This document shows, in pieces, positions 38,513-54,359 of a DNA stretch of 64,000 nt. This DNA is from Pseudomonadota bacterium (GTDB lineage: Bacteria > Myxococcota_A > UBA9160 > JADFDR01): contig PIVT01000010.1 in NCBI GenBank assembly GCA_003353845.1, positions 4,042 to 68,041 on the forward strand, written 5' to 3'. Positions within the stretch are counted from its first letter, which is position 1. Every line of letters starts with the position of its first letter. The notes under the pieces were generated by a model that saw only the letters and a list, made by a program, of their open reading frames with translations, was not told where the DNA came from and made no database searches. The position numbers were made by a program, and so were the translations under genes.

Positions 38513-39514
38513 TCAGTACTTCTTGTTTCCCAGTTTCTGTTGATGTCGGAACCAGCGTGCAGCTTCGGCGATGGATTCTTCAACCGGTCGGGGATTCCAA
38601 TGAAGTTCGTTTCGAGCTTTGCTGTTGTCGAAATCCTGAATGATTCGCGTCAGGCGAAGGCTTTTCACAGACACTTGGGTTTCCCGACCCAATAACCAGT
38701 GAGCCCGTTCAGAAAGCCAGCAACTCAGGTACATCACCCACATGGGCACGCTGGGCACAGGCCAGCGTAGGCCTGTGGCCTTGGCGGCAATGTCCCAGAT
38801 TTGCTTGAGGCTAAGCGTTCGGTCGGTAATCAAGTAGCGCTCGCCGAGGCGGCCATGCTTCTCCGCCAGAACCATGGCGTTGGCGGCATCTTGAATCCCA
38901 ACGGCACTGAAGCGCCCACCCCAAGCGGGCAGCAAGCCGCGAATGACCTCGGTGATCATCCAGCCGTGAGGTGTGGGTTGGAGGTCTTCGGCACCGTAGG
39001 TCATGGCGACATTGCAGGCGACGCCGGGTAGGCCGCGCTTGCAATAGTCGAGAAAAAGCTCCTCGGCTTCGACACGCACGCATACGTATTCCGAAGCTTG
39101 GTCCGCCCAGTTGAAGGCGTCGGCTTCCGTGGCTATCCCCGTTGGATTCAAGCCCAAGGTCATGAAGGTACTGGTATAGATGAAGCGCTCGACGCCGACA
39201 TCCAGAGCCGCGTCCAAGACATTGCGCAAGCCTTCGACGTTGGTGACGCGCAGGGGGGCAGGGTCTTTTAGCCAGGCTCGCGTGTCCACCACGCAATAAT
39301 AGATGGTGGAACAGCCCTGCATGGCTTCGCGTAGCGAGTCTGCGTCGCACACATCACCAATCGCGCGCTCAACTTTTAGATGATCGATGGCCGAAGTGTC
39401 GCTCGTCGCACGAGTGAAGATGCGGATCTCGCGGCCATCCTTGGCCAGTGTCCTGACGACGTGACTGCCGAGAAACCCGCTGGCGCCCATTACCAGGGCT
39501 TTTCCTTCTGACAT
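38513..39514 (-). CDS. Extended-SDR NAD(P)-dependent epimerase/dehydratase or 3beta-hydroxysteroid dehydrogenase-like reductase
   Basis: It has VMGASGFLGSHVV (the GxxGxxG of extended SDRs). The start is moved to MSEGKALVMG (39514); the ORF track gives 39577. Confidence 0.75.
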   Translation of the reverse strand: MSEGKALVMGASGFLGSHVVRTLAKDGREIRIFTRATSDTSAIDHLKVERAIGDVCDADSLREAMQGCSTIYYCVVDTRAWLKDPAPLRVTNVEGLRNVLDAALDVGVERFIYTSTFMTLGLNPTGIATEADAFNWADQASEYVCVRVEAEELFLDYCKRGLPGVACNVAMTYGAEDLQPTPHGWMITEVIRGLLPAWGGRFSAVGIQDAANAMVLAEKHGRLGERYLITDRTLSLKQIWDIAAKATGLRWPVPSVPMWVMYLSCWLSERAHWLLGRETQVSVKSLRLTRIIQDFDNSKARNELHWNPRPVEESIAEAARWFRHQQKLGNKKY

Positions 39515-39584
39515 GCTTATCCTTTGCTGCGGGTGTCTGGCACGCTGGGGTGGAAGGTGGAAGGTACCTTTCTTCAATTCAGGA

Positions 39585-41393
39585 TCAAGCGAGAGGCGGA
39601 GTACCGGTCACGTGGCGTGCCGCTCGGTAGCCAAAGGTCATGGAGGGGCCAATGGTGCCGCCAGCGCCGGGGTAGCTGGCCCCCATCACGGAGGCGGAAC
39701 AATTACCCGTGGCATACAGCCCGGGGATGGGGCTGTCATCTTCGCGAAGCACACGGGCATGGGCGTCGGTGCGCAATCCGCCCTTGGTGCCGAGGTCTCC
39801 CGGCACCACTTTGATGGCATAGAAGGGCGGTTTCTCAATGGGGGCGATACAGGGATTGGGTTTGACTAGAACATCGCCATAGTAACGGTCGATGGTTGTT
39901 TCGCCGCGTCGAAAATCAGGATCTTGTCCCTTGCGGGCAGAGGCATTGTATCGTTCGAGTTCACTCGCAAGGCCTTGGGGATCGATGCCGCACTGGCGAG
40001 CGAGGTCTTCGATACTGTCGGCCTTCTTCAAAAAACCACTTTTTATATATTTCTTCGTGGGCATGCCCAGCATGATCGGGCCGAGGGGATAACGCATGTG
40101 GAAGCGGTGATCGGCAATTTGGAAGGCGGGAATGGCCTTAGCGCCCTGGCGGTGATGCTCCAATTGGGCGTGACCCACATCTAGATAGGGAGCCGCTTCG
40201 TTGGTAAAACGATGGCCCGCTGCATCGACGATGATGGTTCCAGGCAGTGTACGTTCAGGCAAAAGGAACCAGGGAAAATCCTTTCCTTGTTCACGACTGA
40301 GTTCTGTCCACCAGGAGCCCTTGGCGTACCAGGGGAGGAGATGTCCGGGAACCATGGTCGTAGGCATCCACCAAGCTTCGTCCATATTGCCCAGGGAGGC
40401 GCCGACCTCCACGCCCATGCGGATGGCGTCCCCCGTGTTTTCGGGACTACCCGACGACCAGGTCGCGCAATCACTAGAAAAATGGTGGGCTTGTCGCAAC
40501 GTGGGATTTTTGTCAAAGCCACCCGCCGCAATGATGACGCCTTGACGCGCGCGAATTCGGATCGGTTGGCCGCAGCGAGTGGCTTCGACTCCGACAACGC
40601 GCTCGCCTTCGCTAATGAGTTTCGTCACCGGGCTTTCGAGCCAGAGCGGGATGGAACGTTCCATCAGGGCCAGTCGCAGCGCTCCGCACAGCGCATTTCC
40701 AAGCGTGAGGCGCGTGTCTCTCCGAGCAAAAGAGCGTGTGGGGTTTAGAAGGTAGGAGGCGAAGCTAGTCAGAATCGCGAAGCGGGCGCGAAGAGAGGCG
40801 CTTACCATGTCGCGAGCCTCGGCGCTGCGGATCATCCAGCGCCCGAGGATCAAGAGATGTGGTCCGGGAACGCGAAGCTCTTTTCCCCGCTCTCCTAGTT
40901 TTCGCAGGTTGAAGGGCAGAGATTCAAGAGTACGACCTCCCTCGGGTTTGCTGCCCTCCACATGGGGGTAGTAATCGGGGTAATCGCTAGAGATTTCAAA
41001 GCGGAGCGGGCTGTTTTTTTCCAGGTAAGCGACAACTTCAGGGCTGGATTCGACATAGGCTTGGAGCAGTTCTTCTGCGACGCAGCCAGAAGTGATACTT
41101 CGCAGATAGCTAAGCGCTTCCCCTGGAGAGTCACTTAACTGAGCCTTGGCCATGAGGTGGTTATTGGGGATCCAGATGGAGCCGCCCGAAATAGCGGTGG
41201 AGCCGCCAAACACTGAGCTTTTTTCGAGGACCAGGGTCTTGCTGCCGCAGTCTTTTGCCACGAGCGCCGCGGTCATGGCGCCGCCACCAGATCCGATCAC
41301 GACGACATCAACCTCTTCATCCCAATCTGCCACGGTGCCTTTGGTCCTTTCTATAGCGGGGGTTGACTCGTACCGGGAGGGAGAGATTAGCAC
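39585..41393 (-). CDS. FAD-binding flavoprotein, 3-ketosteroid delta1-dehydrogenase/fumarate-reductase-like (FAD_binding_2)
   Basis: It has the dinucleotide fold VDVVVIGSGGGAMTAAL...LEKSSVFGGSTAISGG and the C-terminal GLYATGNCSASVMGASYPGAGGTIG. Confidence 0.8.
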   Translation of the reverse strand: MLISPSRYESTPAIERTKGTVADWDEEVDVVVIGSGGGAMTAALVAKDCGSKTLVLEKSSVFGGSTAISGGSIWIPNNHLMAKAQLSDSPGEALSYLRSITSGCVAEELLQAYVESSPEVVAYLEKNSPLRFEISSDYPDYYPHVEGSKPEGGRTLESLPFNLRKLGERGKELRVPGPHLLILGRWMIRSAEARDMVSASLRARFAILTSFASYLLNPTRSFARRDTRLTLGNALCGALRLALMERSIPLWLESPVTKLISEGERVVGVEATRCGQPIRIRARQGVIIAAGGFDKNPTLRQAHHFSSDCATWSSGSPENTGDAIRMGVEVGASLGNMDEAWWMPTTMVPGHLLPWYAKGSWWTELSREQGKDFPWFLLPERTLPGTIIVDAAGHRFTNEAAPYLDVGHAQLEHHRQGAKAIPAFQIADHRFHMRYPLGPIMLGMPTKKYIKSGFLKKADSIEDLARQCGIDPQGLASELERYNASARKGQDPDFRRGETTIDRYYGDVLVKPNPCIAPIEKPPFYAIKVVPGDLGTKGGLRTDAHARVLREDDSPIPGLYATGNCSASVMGASYPGAGGTIGPSMTFGYRAARHVTGTPPLA

Positions 41394-41423: not shown

Positions 41424-42209
41424 TCAGGTGGCCGCTAAAAGCCGTTGGATCACTTCGTAGACTTTTGGATTTAACGCAAAGCCCATGTGCGAGGAGTCGA
41501 CTTCAATGTATTCAACGCAGGGCTGATTCTTGAGTCGGGCTGCGGAACTTGGGACGATGCCGTCTCTCTCGCTGTATATGACTTTGATGGGCACATCATT
41601 GGTTTTCAAGCGGCGCAGTTTTAGCCAAACCCCAAAGTCTTGTTCTTCCAGGGGGACGTCCGATCCTTTGACTCGATTTAGTAATTTGTAAAGCGATGTG
41701 CTGCGCGGGTCCCCGTAAGGTGCTCCCATAGTAATCACGTTGCGCGTCAGGTCAGGAACTTCTTGTGAGGCGTCCAAGGCATAAGCACCGCCCATGCTCC
41801 AGCCGACGAGGGAGACTTTTCTCTTTTCAGATTGATAAATTTCTTTGATGCGCTCGACGACAAGACCGCTCATTTTTTTACGGAAGGCGGCGGCCTCCTC
41901 GATTCGGTGGATGCTGTCTTCAGCAGTATCAAAGTTGACGCCTAGCTTCAAGGGGTGCGCTTGGTAACCGATCTTGTTGAGGTAATGTCGAATCAGACCC
42001 ATGGACCCGTCACCCGCGCCATAGCCGGGCAGCGTTAACACAGGGTGTCCATCACCGGGGTGGGCTTTCTTGATCAGTCGCGGCATGCCTACCAGCAGCC
42101 GCGCTACTTCTGCGCCTGAGCGCGGGAACTCACTTAGGGCAAGGGATAGACTCGGTGGTGTTGGGTGGTCGAGCACCAATTCGGATGAAGTCATCCGTTG
42201 ATTGTACAC
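41424..42209 (-). CDS. Alpha/beta-fold hydrolase
   Basis: It has the nucleophile elbow VSLVGWSMGGAYA and a C-terminal D...H pattern (SERDGIV, DSSHMGF). The start is uncertain. Confidence 0.65.
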   Translation of the reverse strand: MYNQRMTSSELVLDHPTPPSLSLALSEFPRSGAEVARLLVGMPRLIKKAHPGDGHPVLTLPGYGAGDGSMGLIRHYLNKIGYQAHPLKLGVNFDTAEDSIHRIEEAAAFRKKMSGLVVERIKEIYQSEKRKVSLVGWSMGGAYALDASQEVPDLTRNVITMGAPYGDPRSTSLYKLLNRVKGSDVPLEEQDFGVWLKLRRLKTNDVPIKVIYSERDGIVPSSAARLKNQPCVEYIEVDSSHMGFALNPKVYEVIQRLLAAT

Positions 42210-42218: not shown

Positions 42219-43883
42219 CTATTGACCCAAGGTTTCTACCAATCTCTTGCTACTCGCATGGTTCGCAGCGCGGCGACCCGAAAAGACGCAATCGGCGATG
42301 GAAAGCCCGCTGACATAACCACTGGAAGAGACACCCACAGCCGTGCGACCCGCGGCGTAGAGTCCATGAATTTCCGAACCATCCTCGCGTTTGACTTCAC
42401 CCGTTTCTTCGTTGACCACGAGTCCGCCCAGGGTCAAGGTGGCTCCGGCAAAGGCGTCGAGGGAGATGTTGATACCGACGAAAGGCGGTTTGAGTTCGTG
42501 GAAGAAGGCTGGCATTTTGCCCATGGGATCGCCTTCGCCGTTATTACGAGCCAAGGCGTTGTATTCTTCGATGGTCTCTATCAGTGTGTCTGCTGGAATG
42601 CCAAAGCGTTTTCCCAGTTGTTCAACACTGCCCGCTCGCTTCCCTGTGTAAAGGAACAAGGTGGTGAGCATGGACTGAAACCACTTGGCTCGATCGGGAA
42701 GGAGGCCTCTGTGGGCTTGTCGCCAGAGTTTGGTGTCAATGATGAGAATGCCTTGGGTTGCATTCTCTTCATTGCACATGAATTCGCCAGCCTTGGCACC
42801 GTAGTACTGCTCATTGCAAATGCGCTTGCCCTTGCGATTGACCAGGATGCCCTTGGGAAAGGCATCAGGAGGATTGATGAAACGCCAAAAGGAAACGTTT
42901 CCCATCATGTCCGTCGCGCCACCAGCGTTACACCCCAGTTGAATACCGCTGCCATCGTCGCCTTGAGAACCCAGTGGGATACCGGCCAGATAACGCGGGG
43001 CATGTTCTTTGAGCATCTCACGGTTGTAAATGAAACCGCCGGATGAAAGGATCACACCTGACTTTGCCCGGATGCGCTTGGGGACTGCAAAGCGCTCGGC
43101 CAGCGCATACAAGAAGAGGGCGATATAGCGGAAGGGCGGGAAGCCCAGGGTGACATAACGTGTGTTGTATTCAAATGCGCCGACGAAGTTGTGGAAGCGC
43201 GCCCAAAAGCTGTCTTCCGGAATCACTGCGGCTTCAACGCCGATAGTGTTTCCGTCTTCGCCAGTAAGGATGCGCGTTACTTTACTCTGGCAGCGAATGC
43301 GCACACCTTTTTGAACGGCGGCGCTGCGCAATGGATCATAGAAATCTCGCCCGCCCATGCCCTTGCCAATGGGTTTGTGGCCGCGGGGTGCGGGCTCGGA
43401 GGTTTGCGTGTAGGGGAGAAAGGACTCGTTCCCCGAGTAGTAGAGATTGTACTTGTCGATGGGGTAAGAGGTTTTGAAGGTGCAAAAATTCGGTCCGAAG
43501 ACGACGCCGTTGTCTTCTAGAAATTGCAGGTTGTCCGGGCTCTCATCGCAGAACTTTCGCAGCGTTTCGTCTTTCACAACGCCTCGCGTTTCTTGGGTCA
43601 GGTAATTAAACATGTTTTCGGGTGTGTCATCGAAGCCCGCCTCTTTCTGATAGGGGGTGCCGCCCCCGCCATAGAAGACACCGCCACTCATGCGCGTGGC
43701 GCCTCCCCCGGCATAGCGTTCCAGCACCAGGGTATCGGCTCCGTTGTCGGCGGCTTCGAGAGCGGCTGAAACGCCCGCTCCCCCAAATCCGACCACGATG
43801 ACATCGGCCTCATCATCCCAGGGCTGGGAGGGGGTAGGTTGGAAGGAAGTGTGTTCAGGGGAGGTGGCTTCGGATGACGGCAT
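42219..43883 (-). CDS. FAD-binding flavoprotein, KstD/fumarate-reductase-like (second copy)
   Basis: It has ADVIVVGFGGAGVSAALEAA...LERYAGGGATRMSGG and the C-terminal GLYAAGRTAVGV. Confidence 0.8.
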   Translation of the reverse strand: MPSSEATSPEHTSFQPTPSQPWDDEADVIVVGFGGAGVSAALEAADNGADTLVLERYAGGGATRMSGGVFYGGGGTPYQKEAGFDDTPENMFNYLTQETRGVVKDETLRKFCDESPDNLQFLEDNGVVFGPNFCTFKTSYPIDKYNLYYSGNESFLPYTQTSEPAPRGHKPIGKGMGGRDFYDPLRSAAVQKGVRIRCQSKVTRILTGEDGNTIGVEAAVIPEDSFWARFHNFVGAFEYNTRYVTLGFPPFRYIALFLYALAERFAVPKRIRAKSGVILSSGGFIYNREMLKEHAPRYLAGIPLGSQGDDGSGIQLGCNAGGATDMMGNVSFWRFINPPDAFPKGILVNRKGKRICNEQYYGAKAGEFMCNEENATQGILIIDTKLWRQAHRGLLPDRAKWFQSMLTTLFLYTGKRAGSVEQLGKRFGIPADTLIETIEEYNALARNNGEGDPMGKMPAFFHELKPPFVGINISLDAFAGATLTLGGLVVNEETGEVKREDGSEIHGLYAAGRTAVGVSSSGYVSGLSIADCVFSGRRAANHASSKRLVETLGQ

Positions 43884-44066: not shown

Positions 44067-44933
44067 ATGCGATATTCCTATAGCGAAAACATGTGTGATC
44101 CCAGCTATTACCTCCCCCTGGCCAAGGCAGCCGAAGAAGCAGGCTACGCCTCTATGGCTGTTCCAGACAGCCTCTGTTACCCCAAGGTCACCGACAGCGA
44201 ATATCCCTACTTCGGCGACGGGACCAACGATTTTCTAGAGGGCAAACCCTTTATTGAGCCCTTTTCCCTGATTCCAGCCATGGGTGCCGTGACGACGAAA
44301 CTTCGCTTTACCACCTTCGTGATGAAACTGCCGATTCGGCAGCCCGTGCTGGTGGCAAAATCGGCTAGCTCAGTTGCCGTGCTTACCAATAATCGCTTTG
44401 GGTTTGGCATCGGATTGTCTCCCTGGCCCGAGGATTTCAAGGTCTGTGGTGAACGTTGGAAAGGGCGTGGAAAGCGCATGGATGAGATGATTGAGATTAT
44501 TCGTGGGCTCACTACGGGTGAGTTCTATGAGTTCCATGGGAAGTACTACGATTTTGATGCCATCAAGATCTGTCCGACACCCAGCGAGCCCATCCCCCTG
44601 CTGATCGGTGGACACAGCGATGCCGCGCTGCGACGCGCCGCTTTTATCGGGGACGGCTGGATGCACGCGGGCGGGGAAGAAGACGAACTCATCGGTATGG
44701 TGCAGCGGCTTCAGGAGTTGCGCCGTGAAGCGGGTAGAGAGAATGAGCCTTTCGAAGTGCACGCCATTGCCATGGCGGGTTACACGCTGGACGGTGCCAA
44801 ACGGCTTGAGGATCTTGGCGTGACAGATTTGATTGTCGCTTTTCGAAATCTGTACGAGGCCGATGAACAGAGCCTGGAGCAAAAACTCAGTATCTTGAAC
44901 CAGTTTGCCGACGATGTGGTTTCGAAGATCTGA
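44067..44933 (+). CDS. Luciferase-like monooxygenase (LLM) class flavin/F420-dependent oxidoreductase, paralog 1
   Basis: It follows the TIM-barrel LLM pattern (F.EPF..I.AMG..TTKLRF.T.V.KLP.R.P.LVAK; WKGRGKRMDE; LLIGGHSDAALRRAA). It shares this with ORFs 45822 and 49252. Confidence 0.75.
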   Translation: MRYSYSENMCDPSYYLPLAKAAEEAGYASMAVPDSLCYPKVTDSEYPYFGDGTNDFLEGKPFIEPFSLIPAMGAVTTKLRFTTFVMKLPIRQPVLVAKSASSVAVLTNNRFGFGIGLSPWPEDFKVCGERWKGRGKRMDEMIEIIRGLTTGEFYEFHGKYYDFDAIKICPTPSEPIPLLIGGHSDAALRRAAFIGDGWMHAGGEEDELIGMVQRLQELRREAGRENEPFEVHAIAMAGYTLDGAKRLEDLGVTDLIVAFRNLYEADEQSLEQKLSILNQFADDVVSKI

Positions 44934-44945: not shown

Positions 44946-45620
44946 CTACTTTTTTTCCAGGGTTTGCAGGTATGCCGTAAGGACATCCGCGAGGGCTTCG
45001 CGCTCGTGTTTGTAATCGTAGTTACTGGGATATTGCATGTATTCAAAGGCGAAACCCCGCAACGCTGAAATGAAAACACGCTGCGCTTTTTTAGGCGGCT
45101 GTTTCTGGCCTAGCGTTTGCGCCAGTAACTGATCACTGCTTTCCTTTAACTCTTTGGCGACGACGAGCAGTCGGTCGCGGGAAGCGGAGCGCGGCGTCAT
45201 CTCGCTGCGTGTCGCTAAAATAATCTCGAAGCATGCGCGCGCGATGGGTGCGCCAAAGATGTCCCAGCCCACATCGACCAACCCTTGGACGCGTTCTTGA
45301 AGGTTGTCCCCACGAATCTCGATTTCTTGAAGGCGGCGTGTGAGATGTTCGTAACCCGCGTCGAGTACGGCCGAGAGCAGGCCGCCGCGGTCTCCAAAGT
45401 GGTATTGCATCACGCCCCAGGTGACACCGGCGCGCGCCGCGATGCGCTTCATGGTGGTGGCCGCAAATCCCTCCGTGCAGATGCAATCCACGGCGGCTTC
45501 GATGACCAGGATTCGAGTTTCGGTCCCCCGCGTGGTGGGCCGCCGCTTTTGTTTGTGTTGTCCGGGGGTTACGCGGTGGCTTCGCAATGCGGTTTTCTGT
45601 GGCTTTGGCTCAGGACTCAT
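44946..45620 (-). CDS. TetR family transcriptional regulator
   Basis: It has the N-terminal HTH ILVIEAAVDCICTEGFAATTMKRIAARAGVTWGVMQYHFG. Confidence 0.85.
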   Translation of the reverse strand: MSPEPKPQKTALRSHRVTPGQHKQKRRPTTRGTETRILVIEAAVDCICTEGFAATTMKRIAARAGVTWGVMQYHFGDRGGLLSAVLDAGYEHLTRRLQEIEIRGDNLQERVQGLVDVGWDIFGAPIARACFEIILATRSEMTPRSASRDRLLVVAKELKESSDQLLAQTLGQKQPPKKAQRVFISALRGFAFEYMQYPSNYDYKHEREALADVLTAYLQTLEKK

Positions 45621-46694: not shown

Positions 46695-46710
46695 TCGAGA
46701 TCAGGACCCA

Positions 46711-48777
46711 GTGAGCATGTCTTCGAGTGCGATGAAGCTATTTAGCCCGGTGTCCATTGGAACCATGACGCTGCGCAATCGTATCGTCATGGCGCCGATC
46801 ACGACCAATTACGGGACTGAGGATCAAGAGCCTTCGGAGCGATTGGTTCGATATCTCGAAGAGCGGGCCAAAGGTGGCGTGGGCTTGATCACCGCCGAAG
46901 TGTGTTCGGTAGACCTCAAGCATCGCTATCAAACCAACTCGCTGAGCCTGGCGCATGATCGCTACATCGATCAGCACCGTCAGCTCGTCGATGTGATTCA
47001 TCGTCACGGCGCAAAAATTCAACCGCAGATTACCCACCCCGGGCCGGAATCCATGTCGATTTGGATGGAGGACACACCGGGGCTTGGCCCTTCCTCGATT
47101 TGCGGTTTGGGGAATCGCCCCCCGTGCCGTGAGTTGGCGCTGGAAGAATTGCCGGCCATCGTCGAGCAGTACGCTCAGGCGGCCCGACGCGCACAAGAGG
47201 CTGGTTATGACGGCATGGAATTACATGCGGCCCATGCCTATATGCTTTTGGCATCCTTCCTGACGCCTTGGCGCAATAAACGAAGCGATGAGTACGGCGG
47301 CAAGAAACCCGAAGGGCGCTTCCGCTTCTTGCTCGAAGTGATCCGCGCGATGAAGCAAAGCACCGGCGGAAATTTCCCATTAACCCTGCGTATTTCAGGC
47401 TACGAGCGATTAAAAGGCGGCCGGGAGTTGAACGAAACCCAAGCCATGGCTCCTATTATGGTGGAAGCAGGTGTCGATGCCTTTCATCTCACGGGCGGCT
47501 ACGCGGGGGACGCCGAAGCAGCCAGCACCATCTGTGGGTCGGAGTACGATTTCGGTTATAACGTTTCCGAGGCAAAAGCCTTGAAACAAGTGGTCGACGT
47601 GCCGGTCATGGCCGTAGGTCGCATCCACGATCCGAAACACGCCGAACAAATTCTCCAAAGTGGTGGGGCGGACTTGGTGGTGATGGGGCGACCCTTGCTG
47701 GCCGACCCCGAGCTTCCGCTCAAGGCACAGCAGGGTCGGTTCCAGGAAATTCGCCGCTGTATTTCCTGCCAGAACTGTGTCGATACCCTGATCGTTATGG
47801 ATATGAACTGCGCGGTGAATGCGCGTTCCGGGCGAGAGACGCAATATAGTGTGGGGCTTGCTTCTTCCTCAAAGAAAGTGTTGGTCATTGGTGGCGGTAC
47901 GGCGGGGATGGAGGCTGCACGGGTGGCAGCCTTGCGCGGGCATCGCGTGACCTTGTGTGAACAGGGTCAGCGCCTGGGTGGTTCGCTCACCCTGGCCTCT
48001 ACGGTGCACAGCGATAACGAAGCCTTTCTTAGCTATTTAACCGGAGAGGTGAAGCGGCTGCCCATCTCGCTGCGCCTGGGTCACAAAGCTTCACCAGCGT
48101 TCGTGCGAGATTTTGCACCCGATGCGGTGATCGTTGCCAGCGGGATGCGGCTAGAGGAACCGAAGATTCCGGGAGCTGACTTGCCTCAGGTGTTGAGCGG
48201 ATCTCAGATGAGACGCTTGTTGTCGGGGGATGTGCAACCGGTGGAGCAGGGCGTGCCCGCATGGATGACGAAATTGTTGCAGTTGGCTGGAGATAAGATT
48301 CAGAGACATATTACGCCTCAGCGCTTGCGTCAGTTGTCGAAACTCTGGATGCCACTGGGTTCTCGCGTAGCCATCATCGGTGCTGACCTGGCGGGGATAG
48401 AACTGGCTGAGTTCCTGGCTGAGCGCGGTCGCGAGGTGTTTTTGTTGGACGAAGGCAAACGCATTGCACTTGATGTGGGCTTGCGGCGGCGTGCCGACCA
48501 CATGGATCGCTTGGATCGCTTGGGTGTTATTGTGAATACCTCTGTGACGGTGGAGCGAATCACGCCCGAGGGTGTGTGGATTCAGAATCAATTGGGTGGC
48601 AAGCATAGGGTCGAAGTGGATAGCGTGATCCTGTCCGGAACACCGGTTGCAGACACGCGTCTATTTGAAGAGATTTCGCCCTTGGTCCCAGAGGCGTATG
48701 CCATCGGTGATTGTACGGGCCTGGGTTTAATCGCCAAGGCGACAACCGAGGCCATGCGTGTTGCATGCTTGCTGTAG
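46711..48777 (+). CDS. OYE-FeS-FAD three-domain NAD(P)H:flavin oxidoreductase (2,4-dienoyl-CoA reductase FadH / BaiCD-BaiH family), copy 1
   Basis: It has an OYE TIM barrel (LRNRIVMAPITTNY; HAAHAYMLLASFLTPWRNKRSDEYGG), a Cys cluster (CISCQNC), FAD (VLVIGGGTAGMEAA) and NAD (VAIIGADLAGIELAE) folds. Confidence 0.85.
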   Translation: MSMSSSAMKLFSPVSIGTMTLRNRIVMAPITTNYGTEDQEPSERLVRYLEERAKGGVGLITAEVCSVDLKHRYQTNSLSLAHDRYIDQHRQLVDVIHRHGAKIQPQITHPGPESMSIWMEDTPGLGPSSICGLGNRPPCRELALEELPAIVEQYAQAARRAQEAGYDGMELHAAHAYMLLASFLTPWRNKRSDEYGGKKPEGRFRFLLEVIRAMKQSTGGNFPLTLRISGYERLKGGRELNETQAMAPIMVEAGVDAFHLTGGYAGDAEAASTICGSEYDFGYNVSEAKALKQVVDVPVMAVGRIHDPKHAEQILQSGGADLVVMGRPLLADPELPLKAQQGRFQEIRRCISCQNCVDTLIVMDMNCAVNARSGRETQYSVGLASSSKKVLVIGGGTAGMEAARVAALRGHRVTLCEQGQRLGGSLTLASTVHSDNEAFLSYLTGEVKRLPISLRLGHKASPAFVRDFAPDAVIVASGMRLEEPKIPGADLPQVLSGSQMRRLLSGDVQPVEQGVPAWMTKLLQLAGDKIQRHITPQRLRQLSKLWMPLGSRVAIIGADLAGIELAEFLAERGREVFLLDEGKRIALDVGLRRRADHMDRLDRLGVIVNTSVTVERITPEGVWIQNQLGGKHRVEVDSVILSGTPVADTRLFEEISPLVPEAYAIGDCTGLGLIAKATTEAMRVACLL

Positions 48778-48809
48778 ATTGGTTTGAGAATAAATGGAAG
48801 GAGTAGAAC

Positions 48810-49232
48810 ATGGCGGAGGAACATCCCGCACGTGCGGCGTCTTTTAAATCCCGAGAGTGCGTTCATAACCACGACAAGGAAGGTTGGCTATCGCTGTATG
48901 CGGAGAATGCAGTCATCGAAGATCCTATTGGCGTTTCTCCTTTGGATAAAGCCGGAAAGGGTTACGGAACACCCGAAGAGCGCGAAGCTTTTTGGGAACG
49001 CAATATCGCCAATTCCGACATCAAGATTACCATCCACAAGTCCTATGCCTGCGGAAACGAGTGCGCCAATATCGTTACGCTGAATATCATCATCAACCTG
49101 GGTGAGAAAAAACTGTCACAGCAAGTCGATGGCATTTTTACCTATGAAGTGAATGATGCTGGCAAGCTGCTTTCATTGCGTGGCTTCTGGGAGTTCGACG
49201 AAGCCATGAAGGCCATGAAGACCATCGAATAA
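48810..49232 (+). CDS. SnoaL/NTF2-fold protein (ketosteroid-isomerase-like)
   Basis: The 140-aa product matches the SnoaL-like pattern in its N-terminus (AASFKSRECVHNHDKEGWLSLYAENAVIEDPIG) and size. The function is inferred only from fold class. Confidence 0.5.
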   Translation: MAEEHPARAASFKSRECVHNHDKEGWLSLYAENAVIEDPIGVSPLDKAGKGYGTPEEREAFWERNIANSDIKITIHKSYACGNECANIVTLNIIINLGEKKLSQQVDGIFTYEVNDAGKLLSLRGFWEFDEAMKAMKTIE

Positions 49233-49251
49233 GGAAGCGGAAGGGGAAAAC

Positions 49252-50154
49252 GTGAAGCACTGGATATCGCTGGTCAATGTTCCGGAAGTAGAGCAGTACG
49301 TAGAGATTGCTCAGTTTGCAGAAGAGGTGGGCTTCTACGGCATTACCATTGCTGATCACCTCGTAATGCCGACAAACATCACGCAGTCCAAGTATCCCTA
49401 TACGCCCGATGGGAAAATGTGGTGGCCCGAAGACACACCGTGGCCCGATCCCTGGGTGACGCTTACGGCCATGGGGGTGGCGACAACGAAATTGCGCCTG
49501 GCCACCAATATCTATCTGGCTGCGCAGCGAGATCCTTTTGTTTCAGCGCGTGCCATTGCGGCTGCTTCGGTTTATACCAAGGGCCGCGTCGTGTGTGGCG
49601 TCTCTTCGGGATGGATCAAAGAAGAGTACGAAATGGTGGGTGTCGATTTTCATACACGCGGACGTCGCTTGGATGAAACGGTAGAGGTGATGAAGAAACT
49701 GTGGACCGGGAAAGATGTCAGCCATAAGGGAGAGTTCTTTTCCTTCGAGCATGCGCTCCTGTCGCCCAAGCCTCATGCTGAGGTTCCGGTCTGGAGTGGA
49801 GGTGCCAGTAAGGCCGCCTTGCGGCGCGCTGCGCAAAACGACGGATGGCTCGGCATCCCGATGCTGGCTACCCAACTCGAAGAAGTGGTCAAAGAGTTGT
49901 TCGTCCTGCGCGAGAAGATGGGTAAGAGCGATGAGCCCTTTGATATCTGTGCCAGTCTTTTTGAGCCACTCAAGCCCGATTTGCAAGAACACTTGGAAGG
50001 GTTGGGTGTACAGAATAACATGGTGCTGCCCTGGATTGTAACGCCTTGGGGGCGAGCCGGTTGGTTGGAAGAAGGCGAAGACCCCGCGGAACTCGATGTG
50101 AAAAAGCGTGTCATGGAGCGCTTTGCGCATAAGGTAATACATCGACGGTCGTAA
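49252..50154 (+). CDS. LLM class flavin/F420-dependent oxidoreductase, paralog 3
   Basis: It starts at GTG. It has WPDPWVTLTAMGVATTKLRLATNIYLAAQRDPFVSAR and VWSGGASKAALRRAA, parallel to the other two LLMs. Confidence 0.75.
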   Translation: MKHWISLVNVPEVEQYVEIAQFAEEVGFYGITIADHLVMPTNITQSKYPYTPDGKMWWPEDTPWPDPWVTLTAMGVATTKLRLATNIYLAAQRDPFVSARAIAAASVYTKGRVVCGVSSGWIKEEYEMVGVDFHTRGRRLDETVEVMKKLWTGKDVSHKGEFFSFEHALLSPKPHAEVPVWSGGASKAALRRAAQNDGWLGIPMLATQLEEVVKELFVLREKMGKSDEPFDICASLFEPLKPDLQEHLEGLGVQNNMVLPWIVTPWGRAGWLEEGEDPAELDVKKRVMERFAHKVIHRRS

Positions 50155-50226
50155 TTTTCCGTCAGTGAAGCAGGTTTTATTTTTGTGATGAACTCAGATC
50201 AGCCAATGGTTTCGTAGGAGACGTCG

Positions 50227-52194
50227 ATGTCAAATCTCGAAAAATTGTTAAGCCCCATAAAAATCGGTTCCATGGAAATCCGTAATCGGTTGGCCATGTC
50301 TCCCATGACCGTTGACACGGCCAACGACAATGAGACGCCGTCCGATCGACAAATTGAGTATTATGCAGAACGAGCCAAGGGTGGGGCGGCTTTGATCCGA
50401 GTCGAAGTGACCACCATCGATCGCGCGCACCGCTACCAGAGGCGCTCTCTAGGCCTGTACCATGACGATCTCATTCCCGGGCACAAGAAGCTTGTCGACG
50501 CCGTTCATGCGCATGGCGCGAAAATACAGCCACAGCTTGCACACACAGGGCCAGAATCCCTGGCGCCATTCTATGAGGGCATGGAACCGCTAGGTGCGTC
50601 GGTGATTCGCACGCAAACCACCAAGCAAGTTTGCCGGGAAGCGACCGTAGAGGAACTCGAGGCTATTATTGAAATGTACGGTGATGCCGCTCGCCGAACC
50701 CAAGAAGCAGGGTACGACGGTCTCGAACTTCATGCCGCACATAGTTATATGCTCTTGGGTTCCTTCTTGTCGCCCCTGCGAAACTTCCGTCAGGATGAAT
50801 ACGCCGGTCATAAGTTCGAAGGTCGAGCCAAGCTCTTACTTCAGGTGATCGAGAAGGTGCGTAAAACGGTAGGACCGGATTTCCCCATTACGCTTCGGGT
50901 GTCGGGCTTTGAAAAAGAGGCAGGAGGTCGTGAAGTCAACGACACGCAGCGCCTTGCACCGCTTCTGGTTGCGGCAGGTGTGGATTGCTTTGACGTGAGT
51001 GGCGGTGTGGGAGATGCCAATATCACGCAAATTATTACGGGAGCCGAATACGGACCAGGGTATAACCTGGGAGCTGCCATTGCCATCAAGCAGGTGGTGG
51101 ATGTCCCGGTCATGGTTGTGGGTCAGAACATGGATCCCGCTTTTGCGGAGTCCATCTTGCAGGACGGAAAAGTCGATGTCATTGCCATGGGTCGTGCGCT
51201 ACTCGCGGATCCCGAACTGCCGATGAAAGCGAGCCAGGGCAACTTGGCTGGAATCAACCGCTGTACGCTTTGCCAGGACTGTATCGATTCGATGATGACC
51301 TTGGGTGACGGAGTGAAGTGCGCGGTGAACCCCCGTTGTGGGAACGAAGCGGATTTCCCCGTCGAGCAGGCAAAGACCAAAAAGAAAGTACTCGTGATTG
51401 GTGGAGGCCCTGGTGGGTTGGCGGCCGCGCAGATTGCTTGTGAGAGAGGCCACCAGGTGACGCTGATGGAAAAGCAGAGTGAACTTGGGGGTGCCTTCCG
51501 CTGGGCCTCGACGGTTTTTCCACACAACCAGGTATTCTTGGATTATCTCACGCACCAAGTAGAGTCTCTTCCCATTGAAATCAAATTGGGGCAAGAGGCG
51601 ACGGATGTGTCCATCAAGGAGATTGCTCCAGACGCGATCATTGTCGCGACGGGAGGAAAAATTGATGTACCCCAAATTCCCGGAGGCGATTTGCCTCATG
51701 TGATCAGTGGGTCCCGCATTCAAGAGTTTATCCAAGCTGTGCGTGGGGTGGAGGAAGGCTCGACCTTGAACATCGAAGGTCCGGTGGCCATTATCGGTGC
51801 CAATCTCATCGGCTTGGAACTAGCCGAGTTCATCGCCAGGCGTGGCAAGGATGTGCGGCTGCTTGAACCCAGTCGAAGGTTTGCTGTGCCAGCAGGGAAA
51901 AAGCGTCGTGGGGATCACGCCAAGCGCTTGGACCTACTCGGTGTCAGTGTGAACACGGGAATGGCTATTGAGGAAATTACGACGGAAGGAGTGAAGATTC
52001 GCATCGATGACGGCAGCGAGCATTTGGTGAAAGCCAAATCTGTCTTCGTGATGGGCACGCCCTTGGAAGAGCCACGCTTCCTGGAAAGCGTGCAGGGGGC
52101 CGCGGCAGAAGTCTATGGCATCGGCGATTGCACAGGTTTTGGTCTCTCCAAGAAGGCCGTGGCTGAGGCGATGTCTTCGATTTACAAGCTCTGA
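50227..52194 (+). CDS. OYE-FeS-FAD three-domain oxidoreductase (FadH/BaiCD-BaiH family), copy 2
   Basis: It has IRNRLAMSPMTV, HAAHSYMLLGSFLSPLRNFRQDEYAG, CTLCQDC, VLVIGGGPGGLAAA and VAIIGANLIGLELAE. Confidence 0.85.
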   Translation: MSNLEKLLSPIKIGSMEIRNRLAMSPMTVDTANDNETPSDRQIEYYAERAKGGAALIRVEVTTIDRAHRYQRRSLGLYHDDLIPGHKKLVDAVHAHGAKIQPQLAHTGPESLAPFYEGMEPLGASVIRTQTTKQVCREATVEELEAIIEMYGDAARRTQEAGYDGLELHAAHSYMLLGSFLSPLRNFRQDEYAGHKFEGRAKLLLQVIEKVRKTVGPDFPITLRVSGFEKEAGGREVNDTQRLAPLLVAAGVDCFDVSGGVGDANITQIITGAEYGPGYNLGAAIAIKQVVDVPVMVVGQNMDPAFAESILQDGKVDVIAMGRALLADPELPMKASQGNLAGINRCTLCQDCIDSMMTLGDGVKCAVNPRCGNEADFPVEQAKTKKKVLVIGGGPGGLAAAQIACERGHQVTLMEKQSELGGAFRWASTVFPHNQVFLDYLTHQVESLPIEIKLGQEATDVSIKEIAPDAIIVATGGKIDVPQIPGGDLPHVISGSRIQEFIQAVRGVEEGSTLNIEGPVAIIGANLIGLELAEFIARRGKDVRLLEPSRRFAVPAGKKRRGDHAKRLDLLGVSVNTGMAIEEITTEGVKIRIDDGSEHLVKAKSVFVMGTPLEEPRFLESVQGAAAEVYGIGDCTGFGLSKKAVAEAMSSIYKL

Positions 52195-52241: not shown

Positions 52242-52700
52242 TCAGGCCGCATCTCCATCATCGTTTGACGAAAAGTAGGAGCTCAGCACCTGGGCTAAAC
52301 TGCGACAAATGTCCGTTGTGGATAGGATCCCTACGAGTTTTTCATGCTTGACGACAACGGCACAGCCCACATGGCACTTGGCCATGGCGGTAACGACCTG
52401 GTCTAAAGGTGTATCCATCTCTACGATGAAAGGATCGGGCAGCAAAATATCGCGCGCGCAGATCGTGGCTTTGTCGACCTGGGGCAGGGCGGGGTTGACC
52501 AGTCGGTGGAGGTCGCGCTCAGAGATTAAGCCCATCACACGTCCTCCCTCCTGAACCGGGACGTGACGAATGCCATGCTCTTGCATCAATCGCTCAACGA
52601 AAACCGCGGAATCAGCTGTGCGAACAAAGTGAGGGAAGGGTGTCATGACGCCCCCTACGGCAGGCATGCGTTTGTACTTGCTTAAGTCCATTTTCGTCAT
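52242..52700 (-). CDS. CBS-domain pair protein
   Basis: It has two CBS repeats (..IRHVPVQEGGRVMGLISERDL.. and ..VGCAVVVKHEKLVGILSTTDI..). Confidence 0.8.
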   Translation of the reverse strand: MTKMDLSKYKRMPAVGGVMTPFPHFVRTADSAVFVERLMQEHGIRHVPVQEGGRVMGLISERDLHRLVNPALPQVDKATICARDILLPDPFIVEMDTPLDQVVTAMAKCHVGCAVVVKHEKLVGILSTTDICRSLAQVLSSYFSSNDDGDAA

Positions 52701-52715: not shown

Positions 52716-52943
52716 TTAGAAACGCGGGGTAATGCCATAATAGAGAATTATCTGGAACACGGCATAGGAAAGAAAGAAGGCCAGAAGGGAAACAAGTGCG
52801 CGGCGCAATCCCTTTTGGCGCGTAAAAAGAGCAGTTGTTCCAGCGACCATCACGGCCGAAAAAATAAACATGTGACTGAAGATGTCTAAGAGGTGTGCAT
52901 CTTCGGGGGAAAGGCTGCTAAGCAGGACGACGTAGGATCCCAT
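52716..52943 (-). CDS. Small two-TM membrane protein (hypothetical)
   Basis: The 75-aa product has two hydrophobic helices. It lies 15 nt upstream of the CBS gene. Confidence 0.3.
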   Translation of the reverse strand: MGSYVVLLSSLSPEDAHLLDIFSHMFIFSAVMVAGTTALFTRQKGLRRALVSLLAFFLSYAVFQIILYYGITPRF

Positions 52944-53069
52944 TCAGTCTTCCAGTTCTTTTGCCGTAGGGCTAGCGACGTGCACTGGGTCATCCCTTTT
53001 TGAGAGGGGTGTCGAATGCGTAGTTTATCGGATACAAGCGATATGACCATGCGCCCTGATTATGACTAG

Positions 53070-54359
53070 ATGGTCCGGCTGGATCTGAAATTTCGCATGT
53101 TCTATCATATGCAGGATGCAGGAGAGCAGATTTTGTCGAAACCTGAAGATTTTGATCCCTTTGATCCTGAGACCATCGTCAATCCCTTTCCTTTCTACGC
53201 CGCCCTTCGCAAACACGCACCGGTCTTTGAAATGCGACGCTGTGGCTACTACTTGGTGACGCGTTTTGCTGATGTACGTGCTGCGGCCCTCGATACACAG
53301 ACCTTCTCTTCAAACCTCGTAGCCATCGTCACCGAAGGTGTCGCCGATGGGCCACAAATACTCGACCTGACCAACTCACCTCGCCCAGCGGATGTATTGG
53401 CCATTGCAGATGCTCCAACGCATACCCGCCAGCGCAAGCTCACCAACAAGGCCTTTTCGTTCCGGCGCGTCGCTAAGCTGGAACCTTTTGTGAAGGGGCT
53501 CATGGATGAACTTTTTACGACCCTGAGAGAAACTTCGGAAGTCGATTGGATGGAGGCTGTGGGTCTGCCTTTTCCAATGCGCATCATTTCAGAACTCGTT
53601 GGCTTTCCTCCTGAAGATGCAGATCGGATTCAACGTTGGTCGGATGATGCCTTGGATTTGCTTTCGGGTATTCAATCCCAGGAGAAACTTGGCAGGAATG
53701 CGCTTAGCGTCATTGAGTTGAGTCGATACCTCGGAATTTTGGTTGTCGCGGCCAAAGCCGACCCGGGCGAGAATGTATTGGGTGACTTGGTTCGAGCAAC
53801 CCAAGGGGATGAAGAGGCATTGAGTGACGAGGAAGTGGTTTCCATCTTGGTGCAGTTGGCTACGGCAGGACAAGAAACCACGGGAAGTCTTATCGCAAGT
53901 GCGGCGATGTATCTGGCGAGGGATCCCGAACTGCAAGAACGGTTACGGGCTGAGCCTCAGCGAATTCCTGACTTCATTGAGGAGGCCGTCCGTCTAGAGT
54001 CCCCTTTCTATGGACATTTTCGACAGACCACGCGTGATACGGAAATTGCTGGAGTGGCATTGCCCGAAGGGGCGCGCGTAATGCTTTGCTGGGCATCGGC
54101 CAATCGTGACGAAGATGAGTTCACTAATCCTGAACAAGTCGATCTCGATCGCAGCAACACTCATCTGGGGTTCGGGTTCGGGCCACATTTGTGCATTGGT
54201 GCTTCACTGGCGCGCCTCGAAGCGCGAGTTGCCTTGGAGACCTTGTTGGCACGCACCAGAGAATTCTCCTTGGCGAGGCCGGAAGAACCTTTGCAATATG
54301 TCGAGAGTCTTTTTCTGCGAAGGCTAAAAGCTTTGCCTTTAAGGCTGACCTATTCCTAA
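53070..54359 (+). CDS. Cytochrome P450
   Basis: It has the heme-thiolate loop FGFGPHLCIGASLAR, the I-helix AGQETTGS and the ExxR motif (EAVRLESP). The start is uncertain, with internal Met candidates at 53097 and 53109. Confidence 0.9.
   Translation: MVRLDLKFRMFYHMQDAGEQILSKPEDFDPFDPETIVNPFPFYAALRKHAPVFEMRRCGYYLVTRFADVRAAALDTQTFSSNLVAIVTEGVADGPQILDLTNSPRPADVLAIADAPTHTRQRKLTNKAFSFRRVAKLEPFVKGLMDELFTTLRETSEVDWMEAVGLPFPMRIISELVGFPPEDADRIQRWSDDALDLLSGIQSQEKLGRNALSVIELSRYLGILVVAAKADPGENVLGDLVRATQGDEEALSDEEVVSILVQLATAGQETTGSLIASAAMYLARDPELQERLRAEPQRIPDFIEEAVRLESPFYGHFRQTTRDTEIAGVALPEGARVMLCWASANRDEDEFTNPEQVDLDRSNTHLGFGFGPHLCIGASLARLEARVALETLLARTREFSLARPEEPLQYVESLFLRRLKALPLRLTYS

Follow-up and report, generated by a model that had tools for sequence, protein, structure and literature searches.

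We examined a 64,000-nucleotide stretch of contig PIVT01000010.1 from an assembly deposited as a Pseudomonadota bacterium (GCA_003353845.1; positions 4,042 to 68,041 of the forward strand), referred to here as the window, with positions counted from its first letter. Within it lies a 16-kb island of redox genes (38513-54359) that an earlier note, made from the sequence alone, had linked to the ring chemistry of steroids or terpenoids. When open reading frames (ORFs) were mapped and approximately 60 ORFs of the window were scanned with Pfam, all 13 genes of the island were reproduced with the expected domains (Table 1). The earlier inventory was not in strict positional order; no gene or motif in it was missing or invented. 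Four genes form a minus-strand operon, which begins with the flavoprotein gene FAD2 and continues through a gene for an alpha/beta hydrolase and the flavoprotein gene FAD1 to a gene for an extended short-chain dehydrogenase/reductase (SDR). LLM1, which encodes one of three proteins of the luciferase-like monooxygenase (LLM) family, is divergent from this operon. On the plus strand, LLM2, OYE1, a gene for a protein with the ketosteroid isomerase (KSI) fold, LLM3, and OYE2 form a second operon (45822-52194) with gaps of 16-72 bp. OYE1 and OYE2 encode iron-sulfur (Fe-S) flavoenzymes of the old yellow enzyme (OYE) family. Genes for a TetR-family regulator, a CBS-pair protein, and a cytochrome P450 complete the island.

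Two start sites differ between the mechanical ORFs and the database proteins. The FAD1 ORF begins with GTG at 41393 (602 aa), whereas the database protein P0001, which is identical to FAD1 (100% over 582 aa), begins with ATG at 41333. OYE1 is 688 aa as a mechanical ORF and 686 aa in the database protein (46711 versus 46717). Recent horizontal transfer of the island was considered and dropped, as GC content gave no sign of it (0.53-0.57 in the island and 0.49-0.585 in the window). A sigma54 promoter pattern matched the window 6 times with 5.1 matches expected, and none of the matches was 5' of the island operons.

The earlier note had described the genetic context as anaerobe-looking, and the window does have such content: two HGD-D proteins with a BcrAD ATPase, multihaem c-type cytochromes, a B12-radical SAM protein, a CdhC-like protein, RACo, and a corrinoid protein. 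The window is part of a 79.7-kb contig of a metagenome-assembled genome (MAG), which is also the source of the database proteins P0001 and P0121, both 100% identical to window proteins. The nearest named relatives of window proteins are proteins of MAGs labelled 'Deltaproteobacteria bacterium' (84-87% identity), and the best matches among species-representative genomes are Desulfobacterales and Thermodesulfobacteriota MAGs (53-55% identity). The host is probably an uncultured, anaerobic bacterium of the Desulfobacterota type.

Table 1. Genes of the island, its left flank, and a related locus in another MAG (KSTD, 3-ketosteroid dehydrogenase; positions refer to the window unless another locus is named)
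Feature	Position	Strand	Basis or remarks
HGD-D proteins (two), BcrAD-type ATPase, sigma54 (NtrC-type) response regulator	32657..38283	-	Pfam, NCBIfam; left flank, possibly associated with the island
Extended SDR (HpnA/3beta-HSD-like)	38513..39577	-	Pfam, NCBIfam
FAD1, AcmB-type delta1-KSTD homologue, FAD_binding_2	39585..41333	-	N-terminal GxGxxG motif is GSGGGAM; 582 aa
Serine alpha/beta hydrolase	41424..42209	-	GWSMG elbow; esterase/lipase subfamily without a characterised member
FAD2, delta4-(5alpha)-KSTD-like, FAD_binding_2	42219..43883	-	Motif GFGGAG
LLM1, Bac_luciferase, F420_Rv2161c subfamily	44067..44933	+	Pfam, TIGR03619
TetR-family regulator	44946..45620	-	TetR_N; divergent from the LLM2-OYE1 operon
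LLM2, Bac_luciferase	45822..46694	+	Immediately 5' of OYE1
OYE1, Oxidored_FMN + Pyr_redox_2 Fe-S flavoenzyme	46711..48777	+	Pfam, Cys motif
KSI-fold (SnoaL/NTF2) protein, Rv0760c type	48810..49232	+	SnoaL_2
LLM3, Bac_luciferase	49252..50154	+	5' of OYE2
OYE2, Oxidored_FMN + Pyr_redox_2 Fe-S flavoenzyme	50227..52194	+	Pfam, Cys motif
CBS-pair protein, stand-alone	52242..52700	-	CBS, 68.7 bits
Cytochrome P450	53070..54359	+	FGFGPHLCIG, AGQETT
MtmB-family gene, two KstD genes, 4HBT thioesterase, sigma54 activator, ferredoxin-domain protein, HGD-D pair	L002:6732-17412		MAG PL23a_bin.99

FAD1 (PF00890, 281 bits) can be assigned from its sequence as a homologue of the AcmB-type 3-ketosteroid delta1-dehydrogenase. 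It matched AcmB of Sterolibacterium denitrificans (7P18) with 519 bits and 47% identity over 546 aligned residues and Rhodococcus KstD1 with 307 bits, compared with 83-93 bits for fumarate and urocanate reductases. Among NCBIfam models, the KstD models NF009478 and NF005882 gave 581.5 and 555.3 bits, the models for the oxocyclohexanecarboxylate desaturases ChcC1 and ChcC2 approximately 350 bits, and the tricarballylate dehydrogenase model TcuA 153 bits. Residues Tyr121, Tyr383, Tyr554, and Gly558 of FAD1 correspond to KstD1 Tyr119, Tyr318, Tyr487, and Gly491 in a HMMER alignment to 4C3X. These four KstD1 residues have catalytic roles (PMC8220720), with Tyr318 as the base and Tyr487 binding the 3-keto group. 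FAD1 also has an extra loop region of approximately 40 residues that is found in AcmB and missing from KstD1. The pairing of FAD1 with the SDR gene directly downstream is kept in two related MAGs (identities of 93% and 86% in L001, and of 71% and 74% in L082). Sequence past the SDR gene differs in both MAGs, which fixes the left edge of the minus-strand operon. An OYE/Fe-S gene lies within 10 kb of the KstD gene in 16 of 80 reference-genome KstD loci. In three loci from JGI metagenomes (L084, L085, and L086), a gene for a 60% FAD1 homologue was observed beside genes for an AraC regulator and an F420H2-dependent quinone reductase family protein, along with genes for two family-III CoA transferases, two adjacent acyl-CoA dehydrogenases, a CoA ligase, and a hydratase. 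This arrangement is similar to that of steroid side-chain or ring C/D CoA chemistry.

FAD2 (FAD_binding_2, 125 bits) is assigned to the 3-ketosteroid delta4-(5alpha)-dehydrogenase-like family (Kst4D/TesI type). Its best solved homologue is the delta4-(5alpha)-dehydrogenase of Rhodococcus jostii (4AT0; 230 bits, 37% identity), with flavocytochromes at 95 bits or less. Tyr319, Tyr466, and Ser468 of 4AT0, whose active-site roles were reportedly described by van Oosterwijk et al. in 2012, are kept in FAD2 as Tyr361, Tyr523, and Ser525 (SSGYVSG). FAD2 scored 644 bits with NF005511 (PRK07121.1-4; cutoff, 466 bits), an NCBIfam model without a functional name. The earlier note had called both flavoproteins KstD-like, which is apt for FAD1 as a delta1-KstD-like protein, whereas FAD2 is of the delta4-(5alpha) type. 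The same note had named grouping with clades such as tricarballylate or urocanate reductases as an outcome that would speak against a steroid role. The scores above show no such grouping.

OYE1 and OYE2, which are 49% identical, each combine an Oxidored_FMN domain (PF00724; 248 and 223 bits, respectively) with a Pyr_redox_2 domain (PF07992; 78 and 87 bits). The cluster cysteines of OYE1 (Cys350, Cys353, Cys356, and Cys367), which form a CxxCxxC...C motif, are invariant in an alignment of homologues, as is the H172-x-x-H175-x-Y177 motif. OYE2 has the cysteine motif from residue 346 and the HxxHxY motif as well. The two proteins share the full architecture of the family that includes BaiCD, BaiH, and FadH, to which the earlier note had assigned them, yet neither reached the cutoff of an equivalog model. 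OYE1 and OYE2 scored 424.3 and 411.9 bits with the BaiCD model NF041087 (cutoff, 825 bits), 439 and 423 bits with the mycofactocin OYE_2 model (cutoff, 793 bits), and 384 and 360 bits with the bilirubin reductase model (cutoff, 750 bits). These scores place them in no named equivalog subfamily and about equally far from all characterised members. The proven steroid enzymes of the family include BaiCD/BaiH, the 3-oxo-delta1 reductase OsrA, the 3-oxo-delta4 reductase OsrB, 5beta-delta4-KSTD1 of Sphingobium Chol11, whose gene adjoins A-ring oxidation genes, and CasH of R. jostii. They share only about 28% identity among themselves. OYE1 is a candidate 3-oxosteroid ene-reductase or dehydrogenase.

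Synteny provides the strongest new evidence for a role in steroid metabolism. With an OYE alignment as the query, 80 metagenome loci were retrieved; OYE1 alone as the query retrieved none. Seventy loci reached at least 450 bp 3' of the OYE1 homologue (47-56% identity), and a KSI-fold gene followed directly on the same strand in 34 of them. Among the 50 loci with at least 1500 bp of 5' sequence, the gene directly 5' encoded a Kst4D-like, PRK07121-type flavoprotein in 11. P450 genes (24-37% identity) occurred in 12 of the 80 loci, at most 6 kb away from the OYE1 homologue. LLM genes occurred in 7 loci. No description of a gene pair for an Fe-S flavoenzyme and an Rv0760c-type KSI-fold protein was found in the surveyed literature. 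To judge from contig names (Ga…, TARA, and WGS prefixes), the surveyed metagenome loci (L090-L169), those with the OYE-KSI pair among them, come from several metagenome projects. A PRK07121.1-3 flavoprotein gene often precedes the pair.

The arrangement of the plus-strand operon recurs in part or as a whole. One locus (L090, 88% identity) keeps the order LLM2-OYE1-KSI-LLM3. Adjacency of an LLM gene and an OYE gene is kept in L090 (96% identity) and in Halioglobus japonicus (L089, 9090-12058), where the stop codon of the LLM gene overlaps the start codon of the OYE gene, suggesting a two-protein unit. Two other loci (L111 and L117) have the whole plus-strand set in rearranged order together with a 492-aa flavoprotein (identities of 54-74% for LLM1, LLM2, and LLM3, 61-63% for OYE2, 50-51% for OYE1, and 44-46% for the KSI-fold protein). 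Homologues of LLM1 adjoin the OYE-KSI pair in L100, L111, and L117 (54-69% identity), the LLM2 counterparts in L111 and L117 are 72-74% identical, and LLM3 shares 71-73% identity with LLMs of these two loci and 57% with the LLM whose gene overlaps the OYE gene in Halioglobus. In L111, the genes flanking the set encode an acyl-CoA ligase and a pair of adjacent acyl-CoA dehydrogenases together with a hydratase, an SDR, an aldehyde:ferredoxin oxidoreductase, and a molybdopterin enzyme. This setting looks anaerobic and catabolic. Among cultured organisms, the closest relatives of OYE1, LLM3, and the hydrolase (approximately 50-57% identity) occur in aerobic marine Halieaceae (Halioglobus, Pseudohalioglobus, Seongchinamella, and Litorivivens), which suggests old horizontal exchange between the Halieaceae and the lineage of the island.

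Several related loci place these genes beside genes like those of corrinoid-dependent steroid methyltransferases. Two syntenic loci, L125 and L131 (70-82% identity), have a single-strand array, which in L125 comprises 12 genes (L125:214-17329). It starts in L125 with genes for a 216-aa corrinoid protein, a 447-aa methyltransferase of the MtmB family, and a 268-aa pterin-binding methyltransferase, the sizes and families of which correspond to AbeB, AbeA, and AbeC. Two KstD paralogues, an SRPBCC lipid-binding protein, and an OYE/Fe-S enzyme come next, then an OYE/Fe-S enzyme 52% identical to OYE1, an SDR, a third OYE/Fe-S enzyme, a second MtmB-family methyltransferase, and a second SDR. In an anaerobic Peptococcaceae strain, AbeABC strips C19 from 1-dehydrotestosterone that has been activated by KstD, and the same strain also reduces testosterone to androstanediol. 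EmtA, an estradiol methyltransferase acting in reverse, is another MtmB relative. The gene content of L125 and L131 fits this published enzyme logic of anaerobic testosterone fermentation, and both loci are candidates for complete clusters for anaerobic androgen/estrogen interconversion and reduction. In a Desulfobacterales MAG (L002), an MtmB-family gene (EmtA/AbeA-like) lies directly 5' of tandem KstD genes, the products of which share 53% and 51% identity with FAD1. The AT-rich gap of 677 bp 5' of the MtmB-like gene showed no gene for a corrinoid protein. The recurrence of parts of the island elsewhere as conserved gene neighbourhoods indicates that its grouping is beyond chance.

The roles of the other genes are less clear-cut. 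The SDR matched the Pfam families Epimerase (87 bits) and 3Beta_HSD (PF01073, 68 bits, over profile positions 1-125 of 280 only), in line with the 3beta-hydroxysteroid dehydrogenase (3beta-HSD) likeness proposed earlier, but its best NCBIfam model was HpnA (259.8 bits; cutoff, 367.65), and SdmB gave 159 bits (cutoff, 600). The best solved homologue was 3WJ7. The SDR is a candidate 3-hydroxysteroid dehydrogenase. HpnA is hopanoid-associated and SdmB belongs to sterol C4 demethylation, so that the island might tailor an endogenous polycyclic lipid, such as a bacterial sterol or hopanoid, rather than exogenous steroids. Some OYE loci have genes that would suit such a role: L088 has FA_hydroxylase, a 3beta-HSD-type SDR, and a GMC oxidoreductase, and L087 has two FA_hydroxylase genes. 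However, the two SDR scores are far under their cutoffs, and the window has no cyclase, Rieske SdmA, squalene, or hpn genes. Furthermore, the 3-oxygen function needed for KstD chemistry is missing from hopanoids, and divergent operons under TetR control are typical of catabolic or detoxification loci. Tailoring of an endogenous lipid is therefore highly improbable, and the SDR is considered below as an enzyme for exogenous steroids.

The KSI-fold protein (SnoaL_2, PF12680, 36.8 bits) is related in fold to KSI, as the earlier note had stated, but its closest solved relatives are of the Rv0760c type, for which native isomerase activity is doubtful. It matched Rv0760c of Mycobacterium tuberculosis, a 'putative steroid isomerase,' with an E value of 3e-22, 5Z3R with 1.5e-19, and the Comamonas testosteroni KSI with 7e-4. 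The catalytic roles of KSI Tyr14, Asp38, and Asp99 (C. testosteroni numbering) have been described (PMC13470385). Asp38 and Asp107 of the island protein appear to align with KSI Asp38 and Asp99. A mycobacterial homologue reportedly needed re-engineering to gain KSI activity. It is uncertain whether the island protein would act as a KSI.

All three LLMs matched Bac_luciferase (141 bits for LLM1, 119.7 for LLM2, and 150 for LLM3). LLM1 and LLM3 passed the TIGR03619 cutoff of 166.9 bits (185.2 and 201.3 bits); LLM2 did not (148.5 bits). F420H2_quin_red genes were observed near homologues in L084 and L088. The TetR-family regulator (TetR_N, 39.7 bits) matched the ScbR family best among NCBIfam models, with 64.8 bits (cutoff, 150 bits). 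Inverted-repeat scans of five intergenic regions revealed no credible or shared palindrome that might be its operator. The hydrolase gave weak Pfam matches only. Its Ser138-Asp216-His241 triad is invariant in 40 homologues, and L087 has a gene for a 52% identical homologue on the same contig as a 65% OYE1 homologue. Searching Foldseek with an AlphaFold2 model (pLDDT 92.5) returned generic lipases, esterases, and MCP hydrolases (TM 0.5-0.6, 12-20% identity). A role as a ring-A beta-diketone hydrolase was considered and dropped, as Foldseek does not separate an esterase, a lipase, and a C-C hydrolase. No homologue of the CBS-pair protein was seen in any related locus, and it is probably outside the pathway. 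The P450 (Pfam p450, 115 bits) has an I-helix of the O2 type, and its solved matches include CYP144 (229 bits), a CYP125 ancestor (202 bits), a vitamin D3 hydroxylase (198 bits), and CYP142 (175 bits). It scored above no curated NCBIfam model, its CYP family placement is ambiguous, and whether it belongs with the island is uncertain.

A steroid reading of the island has support from homology, from catalytic residues, and from synteny. We consider it probable that the island is a redox toolkit for ring A (C1-C5) of 3-oxygenated steroids, which would activate the ring oxidatively towards a dienone within an anaerobic steroid transformation. In this scheme, the extended SDR would oxidise a 3-hydroxysteroid to the 3-ketone, and the KSI-fold protein might, more doubtfully, move a delta5 double bond to delta4. 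FAD2 would interconvert saturated 5alpha 3-ketosteroids and 4-en-3-ones, its presumed substrates. OYE1 and OYE2 would act in the same way on the 5beta series, at the 4,5 bond, or else on delta1 or delta6 bonds, in the manner of BaiCD/BaiH, OsrA/OsrB, and 5beta-delta4-KSTD1. FAD1 would make or remove the 1,2 double bond, giving a 1,4-dien-3-one with a 'quinonic' ring A. The known O2-independent routes start at such a ring, either by hydrolytic 2,3-seco cleavage or by corrinoid-dependent transfer of the C19 methyl. The LLMs, each coupled to or near a gene for an Fe-S flavoenzyme, may be F420- or FMN-dependent hydroxysteroid or ketosteroid oxidoreductases, the hydrolase may be an esterase for conjugated or esterified steroids, and the TetR protein is taken to be a local repressor. 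The core proposal of the earlier note, transformation of a steroid-type polycyclic ketone, is likewise supported by sequence and context, as is modification of such a ketone rather than its mineralisation. The terpenoid alternative of the note gained no specific support.

Several findings weigh against this interpretation. FAD1, OYE1, OYE2, and the SDR all scored below every function-specific NCBIfam cutoff. For FAD1, the KstD cutoffs are 789 bits (NF009478) and 788 bits (NF005882). As the KstD models rest on particular clades, a score short of the cutoff speaks against orthology to members of these clades but does not count against the chemistry. Orthologues of FAD2 were not found beside orthologues of FAD1 in other loci. 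At the position of KSI Tyr14 the KSI-fold protein appears to have Ser14, and native isomerase activity may be absent from Rv0760c-type proteins. The regulator, proposed earlier to be of the KstR type, is not KstR-like (26.7 bits with NF033703; cutoff, 280 bits). An O2-activating P450 sits oddly in an anaerobe. Among the approximately 60 ORFs of the window scanned with Pfam, none had the domain of a Rieske oxygenase, an extradiol dioxygenase, an acyl-CoA dehydrogenase, a hydratase, or a thiolase, which bears out the earlier observation that ring-cleavage and beta-oxidation genes are missing. Side-chain genes, AtcABC-type ring-cleavage genes, and MtmB-type methyltransferase genes are missing from the window as well, tblastn giving no match to an MtmB-family methyltransferase at E<1e-3. 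Furthermore, the KstD family includes enzymes for non-steroid cyclic ketones (ChcC1/ChcC2), and the best solved match of both OYE1 and OYE2 is a non-steroid enzyme, 2-naphthoyl-CoA reductase (NCR; 296 and 292 bits, compared with 247 and 218 bits for FadH).

These last two points raise the possibility that the substrates are alicyclic or polycyclic but not steroids, for example ketones of the cyclic terpenoid type, intermediates of the cyclohexane-carboxylate type, or the reduced naphthoyl-CoA-type intermediates of anaerobic hydrocarbon degradation. OYE1 and OYE2 would then be NCR/DHNCR-like, and the HGD-D/BcrAD proteins would form an ATP-dependent reductase. Only 3 kb separate the island from a benzoyl-CoA-reductase/2-hydroxyacyl-CoA-dehydratase-type pair with its ATPase, and L002 has a similar pair beside KstD. 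In addition, LLM-family enzymes are generally known to act on terpenoid ketones. NCR (6QKG) has the same three-cofactor architecture as OYE1 and OYE2, but a score of approximately 295 bits over 650-690 residues is that of a distant relative, whereas OYE1 shares 47-56% identity with proteins of aerobic marine and soil bacteria whose genes have KSI-fold and Kst4D-like genes as partners. Genes of the OYE1 clade are also co-located with EmtAB/AbeABC-like methyltransferase sets. The score of FAD1 with ChcC models falls well short of that with KstD models, and its 47% identity to AcmB also favours a steroid substrate. The partners of OYE1 and OYE2 in the island are of the KSI-fold and KSTD types rather than aryl-CoA pathway enzymes, and the window has no gene for a CoA ligase, CoA transferase, or aryl-carboxylase. 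A non-steroid substrate is thus unlikely, and ring-A chemistry on steroids is the interpretation considered further.

The net direction of that chemistry is not established because all of the core enzymes are reversible. It is possible, if not the outcome that we favour, that the same enzymes act on steroids in a net reductive direction, with delta1- or delta4-3-ketosteroids or 3-oxidised sterols serving as electron sinks. This is a sub-case of the steroid reading with the other net direction. The products would be 5alpha- or 5beta-saturated ketones and then 3-hydroxy stanols, as with gut OsrABC or the androstanediol branch of testosterone fermentation. The Fe-S flavoenzymes have a second Rossmann domain of the NAD(P)H type, and their characterised gut relatives are reductases. 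AcmB is reported to run 1,2-hydrogenation, the reverse reaction (PMC9736390), and strain TUW77 takes testosterone as an electron acceptor. The lack of ring-cleavage and beta-oxidation genes in the window would also suit reduction, and on bioenergetic grounds ketone desaturation would be hard to couple to the low-potential acceptors of sulfate-reducer-type anaerobes. However, L111 has the same genes in a catabolic-looking setting with a CoA ligase, acyl-CoA dehydrogenases, and a hydratase, and FAD enzymes of the KstD/Kst4D type are classically dehydrogenases. No sequence feature fixes the direction. Oxidative activation of ring A stays our preferred reading.

Clusters for the oxidation and reduction of the steroid A ring are already known as a kind of system. 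In environmental degraders of steroids and bile salts (Sphingobium sp. Chol11 with 5beta-delta4-KSTD1 and neighbouring kstD genes, R. jostii RHA1 with CasH, and C. testosteroni with TesH/TesI/KSI), a single neighbourhood holds enzyme families that are also those of the island: delta1-KSTDs, flavoproteins of the delta4-(5alpha)-KSTD type, OYE-family Fe-S flavoenzymes (FMN, FAD, and [4Fe-4S]), KSI-fold proteins, and 3-hydroxysteroid dehydrogenases, for which the island SDR is a candidate. Unlike those degraders, the host of the island looks like an anaerobic member of the Desulfobacterota, and there are two Fe-S flavoenzymes, each with an adjoining LLM gene. KshAB, HsaABCD, and side-chain genes are absent from the window, and the regulator is not KstR. 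The identity of the island OYEs to those of sphingomonad clusters is only 25-36%. The resemblance to AcmA/AcmB of S. denitrificans lies in the 47% identity, catalytic residues, and extra loop of FAD1 and in the paired gene for an NAD-dependent dehydrogenase; in contrast, the island SDR is extended and HpnA-like, and the window has no S25DH-type molybdoenzyme and no AtcABC. The gut systems BaiCD/BaiH and OsrABC (Clostridium steroidireducens), which act on 3-oxo-delta4 and 3-oxo-delta1 steroids in anoxia, have Fe-S flavoenzymes with the same PF00724 and PF07992 domains, and two paralogues occur in the island as well. However, the island lacks the bai operon context (BaiB, BaiE, and BaiF), and FAD-type KSTDs and LLMs are present in the island only. 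AbeABC and EmtABCD (Phosphitispora sp. TUW77 and Denitratisoma sp. DHT3) are anaerobic systems that need a 1,4-dien-3-one ring A made by KstD. The likeness to them is that an MtmB-family methyltransferase 1 (MT1) gene is beside KstD in L125 and L131 (OYE1 clade) and, in part, in L002 (FAD1 clade). The window itself has a corrinoid protein and RACo but no detectable MtmB-family MT1.

What is new is the lineage and its anaerobic setting, the duplicated LLM-Fe-S flavoenzyme units, and the widespread pair of Fe-S flavoenzyme and KSI-fold genes, which in metagenomes is linked to AbeABC-like clusters. The O2-independent steroid transformations in the surveyed literature are those of a few denitrifying Proteobacteria, gut Firmicutes, and one Peptococcaceae isolate. 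A limited search found no description of steroid metabolism in Desulfobacterota. A more speculative proposal, which we regard as rather doubtful, is that the island is the ring-A module of a steroid metabolism, not described so far, of sulfate-reducer-type Desulfobacterota that live in anoxic sediments. This metabolism might be steroid respiration or hydrogenation, or anaerobic catabolism or interconversion of sex steroids, and the LLM-Fe-S flavoenzyme pairs might be a new two-protein, F420- or FMN-linked ene-reductase unit. The hydrogenation variant would provide the long-sought microbial agent of sterol-to-stanol conversion. In the sex-steroid variant, the dienone made by KstD would feed a corrinoid methyltransferase (AbeABC/EmtAB-like), a sigma54-controlled HGD-D/BcrAD enzyme acting on the steroid nucleus, or both. 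A steroid A-ring redox island in this lineage, whichever way it works, would extend steroid turnover to the dominant organisms of sulfidic sediments, with a bearing on sterol and stanol biomarkers and on the fate of hormone pollutants in anoxia. Three modules are open to testing: the OYE-KSI pair of soil, marine, and sediment metagenomes, the LLM-Fe-S flavoenzyme pairs, and the combination of an AbeABC-like set with KstD paralogues and three Fe-S flavoenzymes. These modules are also a candidate source of steroid ene-reductases and dehydrogenases for biocatalysis.

The genes to the left of the island might belong with it. The HGD-D proteins scored below the cutoffs of the double-cubane, BzdN, and HadC models. 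The order KstD, sigma54 activator, HGD-D pair is found again in L002, the Desulfobacterales MAG, where the two HGD-D proteins have 54% and 45% identity to those of the window. It was not seen in other related loci. It is possible that an ATP-driven HGD-D/BcrAD radical enzyme works with the steroid genes. Farther left, 3' of the HGD-D genes (30953-32606), a gene for a 274-aa protein with only a CdhC (acetyl-CoA synthase beta subunit) domain adjoins one for a CbiA/CooC-like ATPase, and two unannotated ORFs come after these (29584-30933). The segment 23802-28416 encodes an EcKL/APH-type kinase (23802-25148), a Sulfotransfer_3 protein, and an SDR-GFO/IDH/MocA fusion. Sulfotransfer_3 homologues occur near OYE1-clade genes in L120 (two copies, 52% and 29% identity) and L088 (32%) and near KstD genes in L024, L074, and L055 (25-30%). 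This recurrence hints at steroid sulfation. An APH-type kinase gene adjoins the OYE gene in L087, and the 'phosphotransferase family' also includes the S. denitrificans 25-hydroxysteroid kinase.

To the right of the island, 6 kb 3' of it, genes for RACo and a 215-aa corrinoid protein are followed by an ORF that runs off the end of the window (60664-64000). In L083, a similar set of corrinoid protein and RACo genes (41% and 52% identity), together with a gene for a URO-D methyltransferase, lies 7 kb from a gene for a 65% KstD homologue. The ORF at the window end was considered as a URO-D/MtaA-type methyltransferase like that of L083, an assignment that was dropped as tblastn showed no similarity. 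Elsewhere in the window (5740-8048, 15957-19502, and 20768-23397) are two separate ResB/CcsA pairs for cytochrome c biogenesis, a DsbA/DsbB pair, and two cytochromes with multiple haems, one c7/c3/MtrC-like and one NapC/NirT-like. The P450 gene is followed immediately on its right (54981-60620) by two genes of the Na+/H+ exchanger family, one with TrkA-N/C domains, and between them lie an unannotated 460-aa ORF and a gene for a protein with a weak P-II domain.

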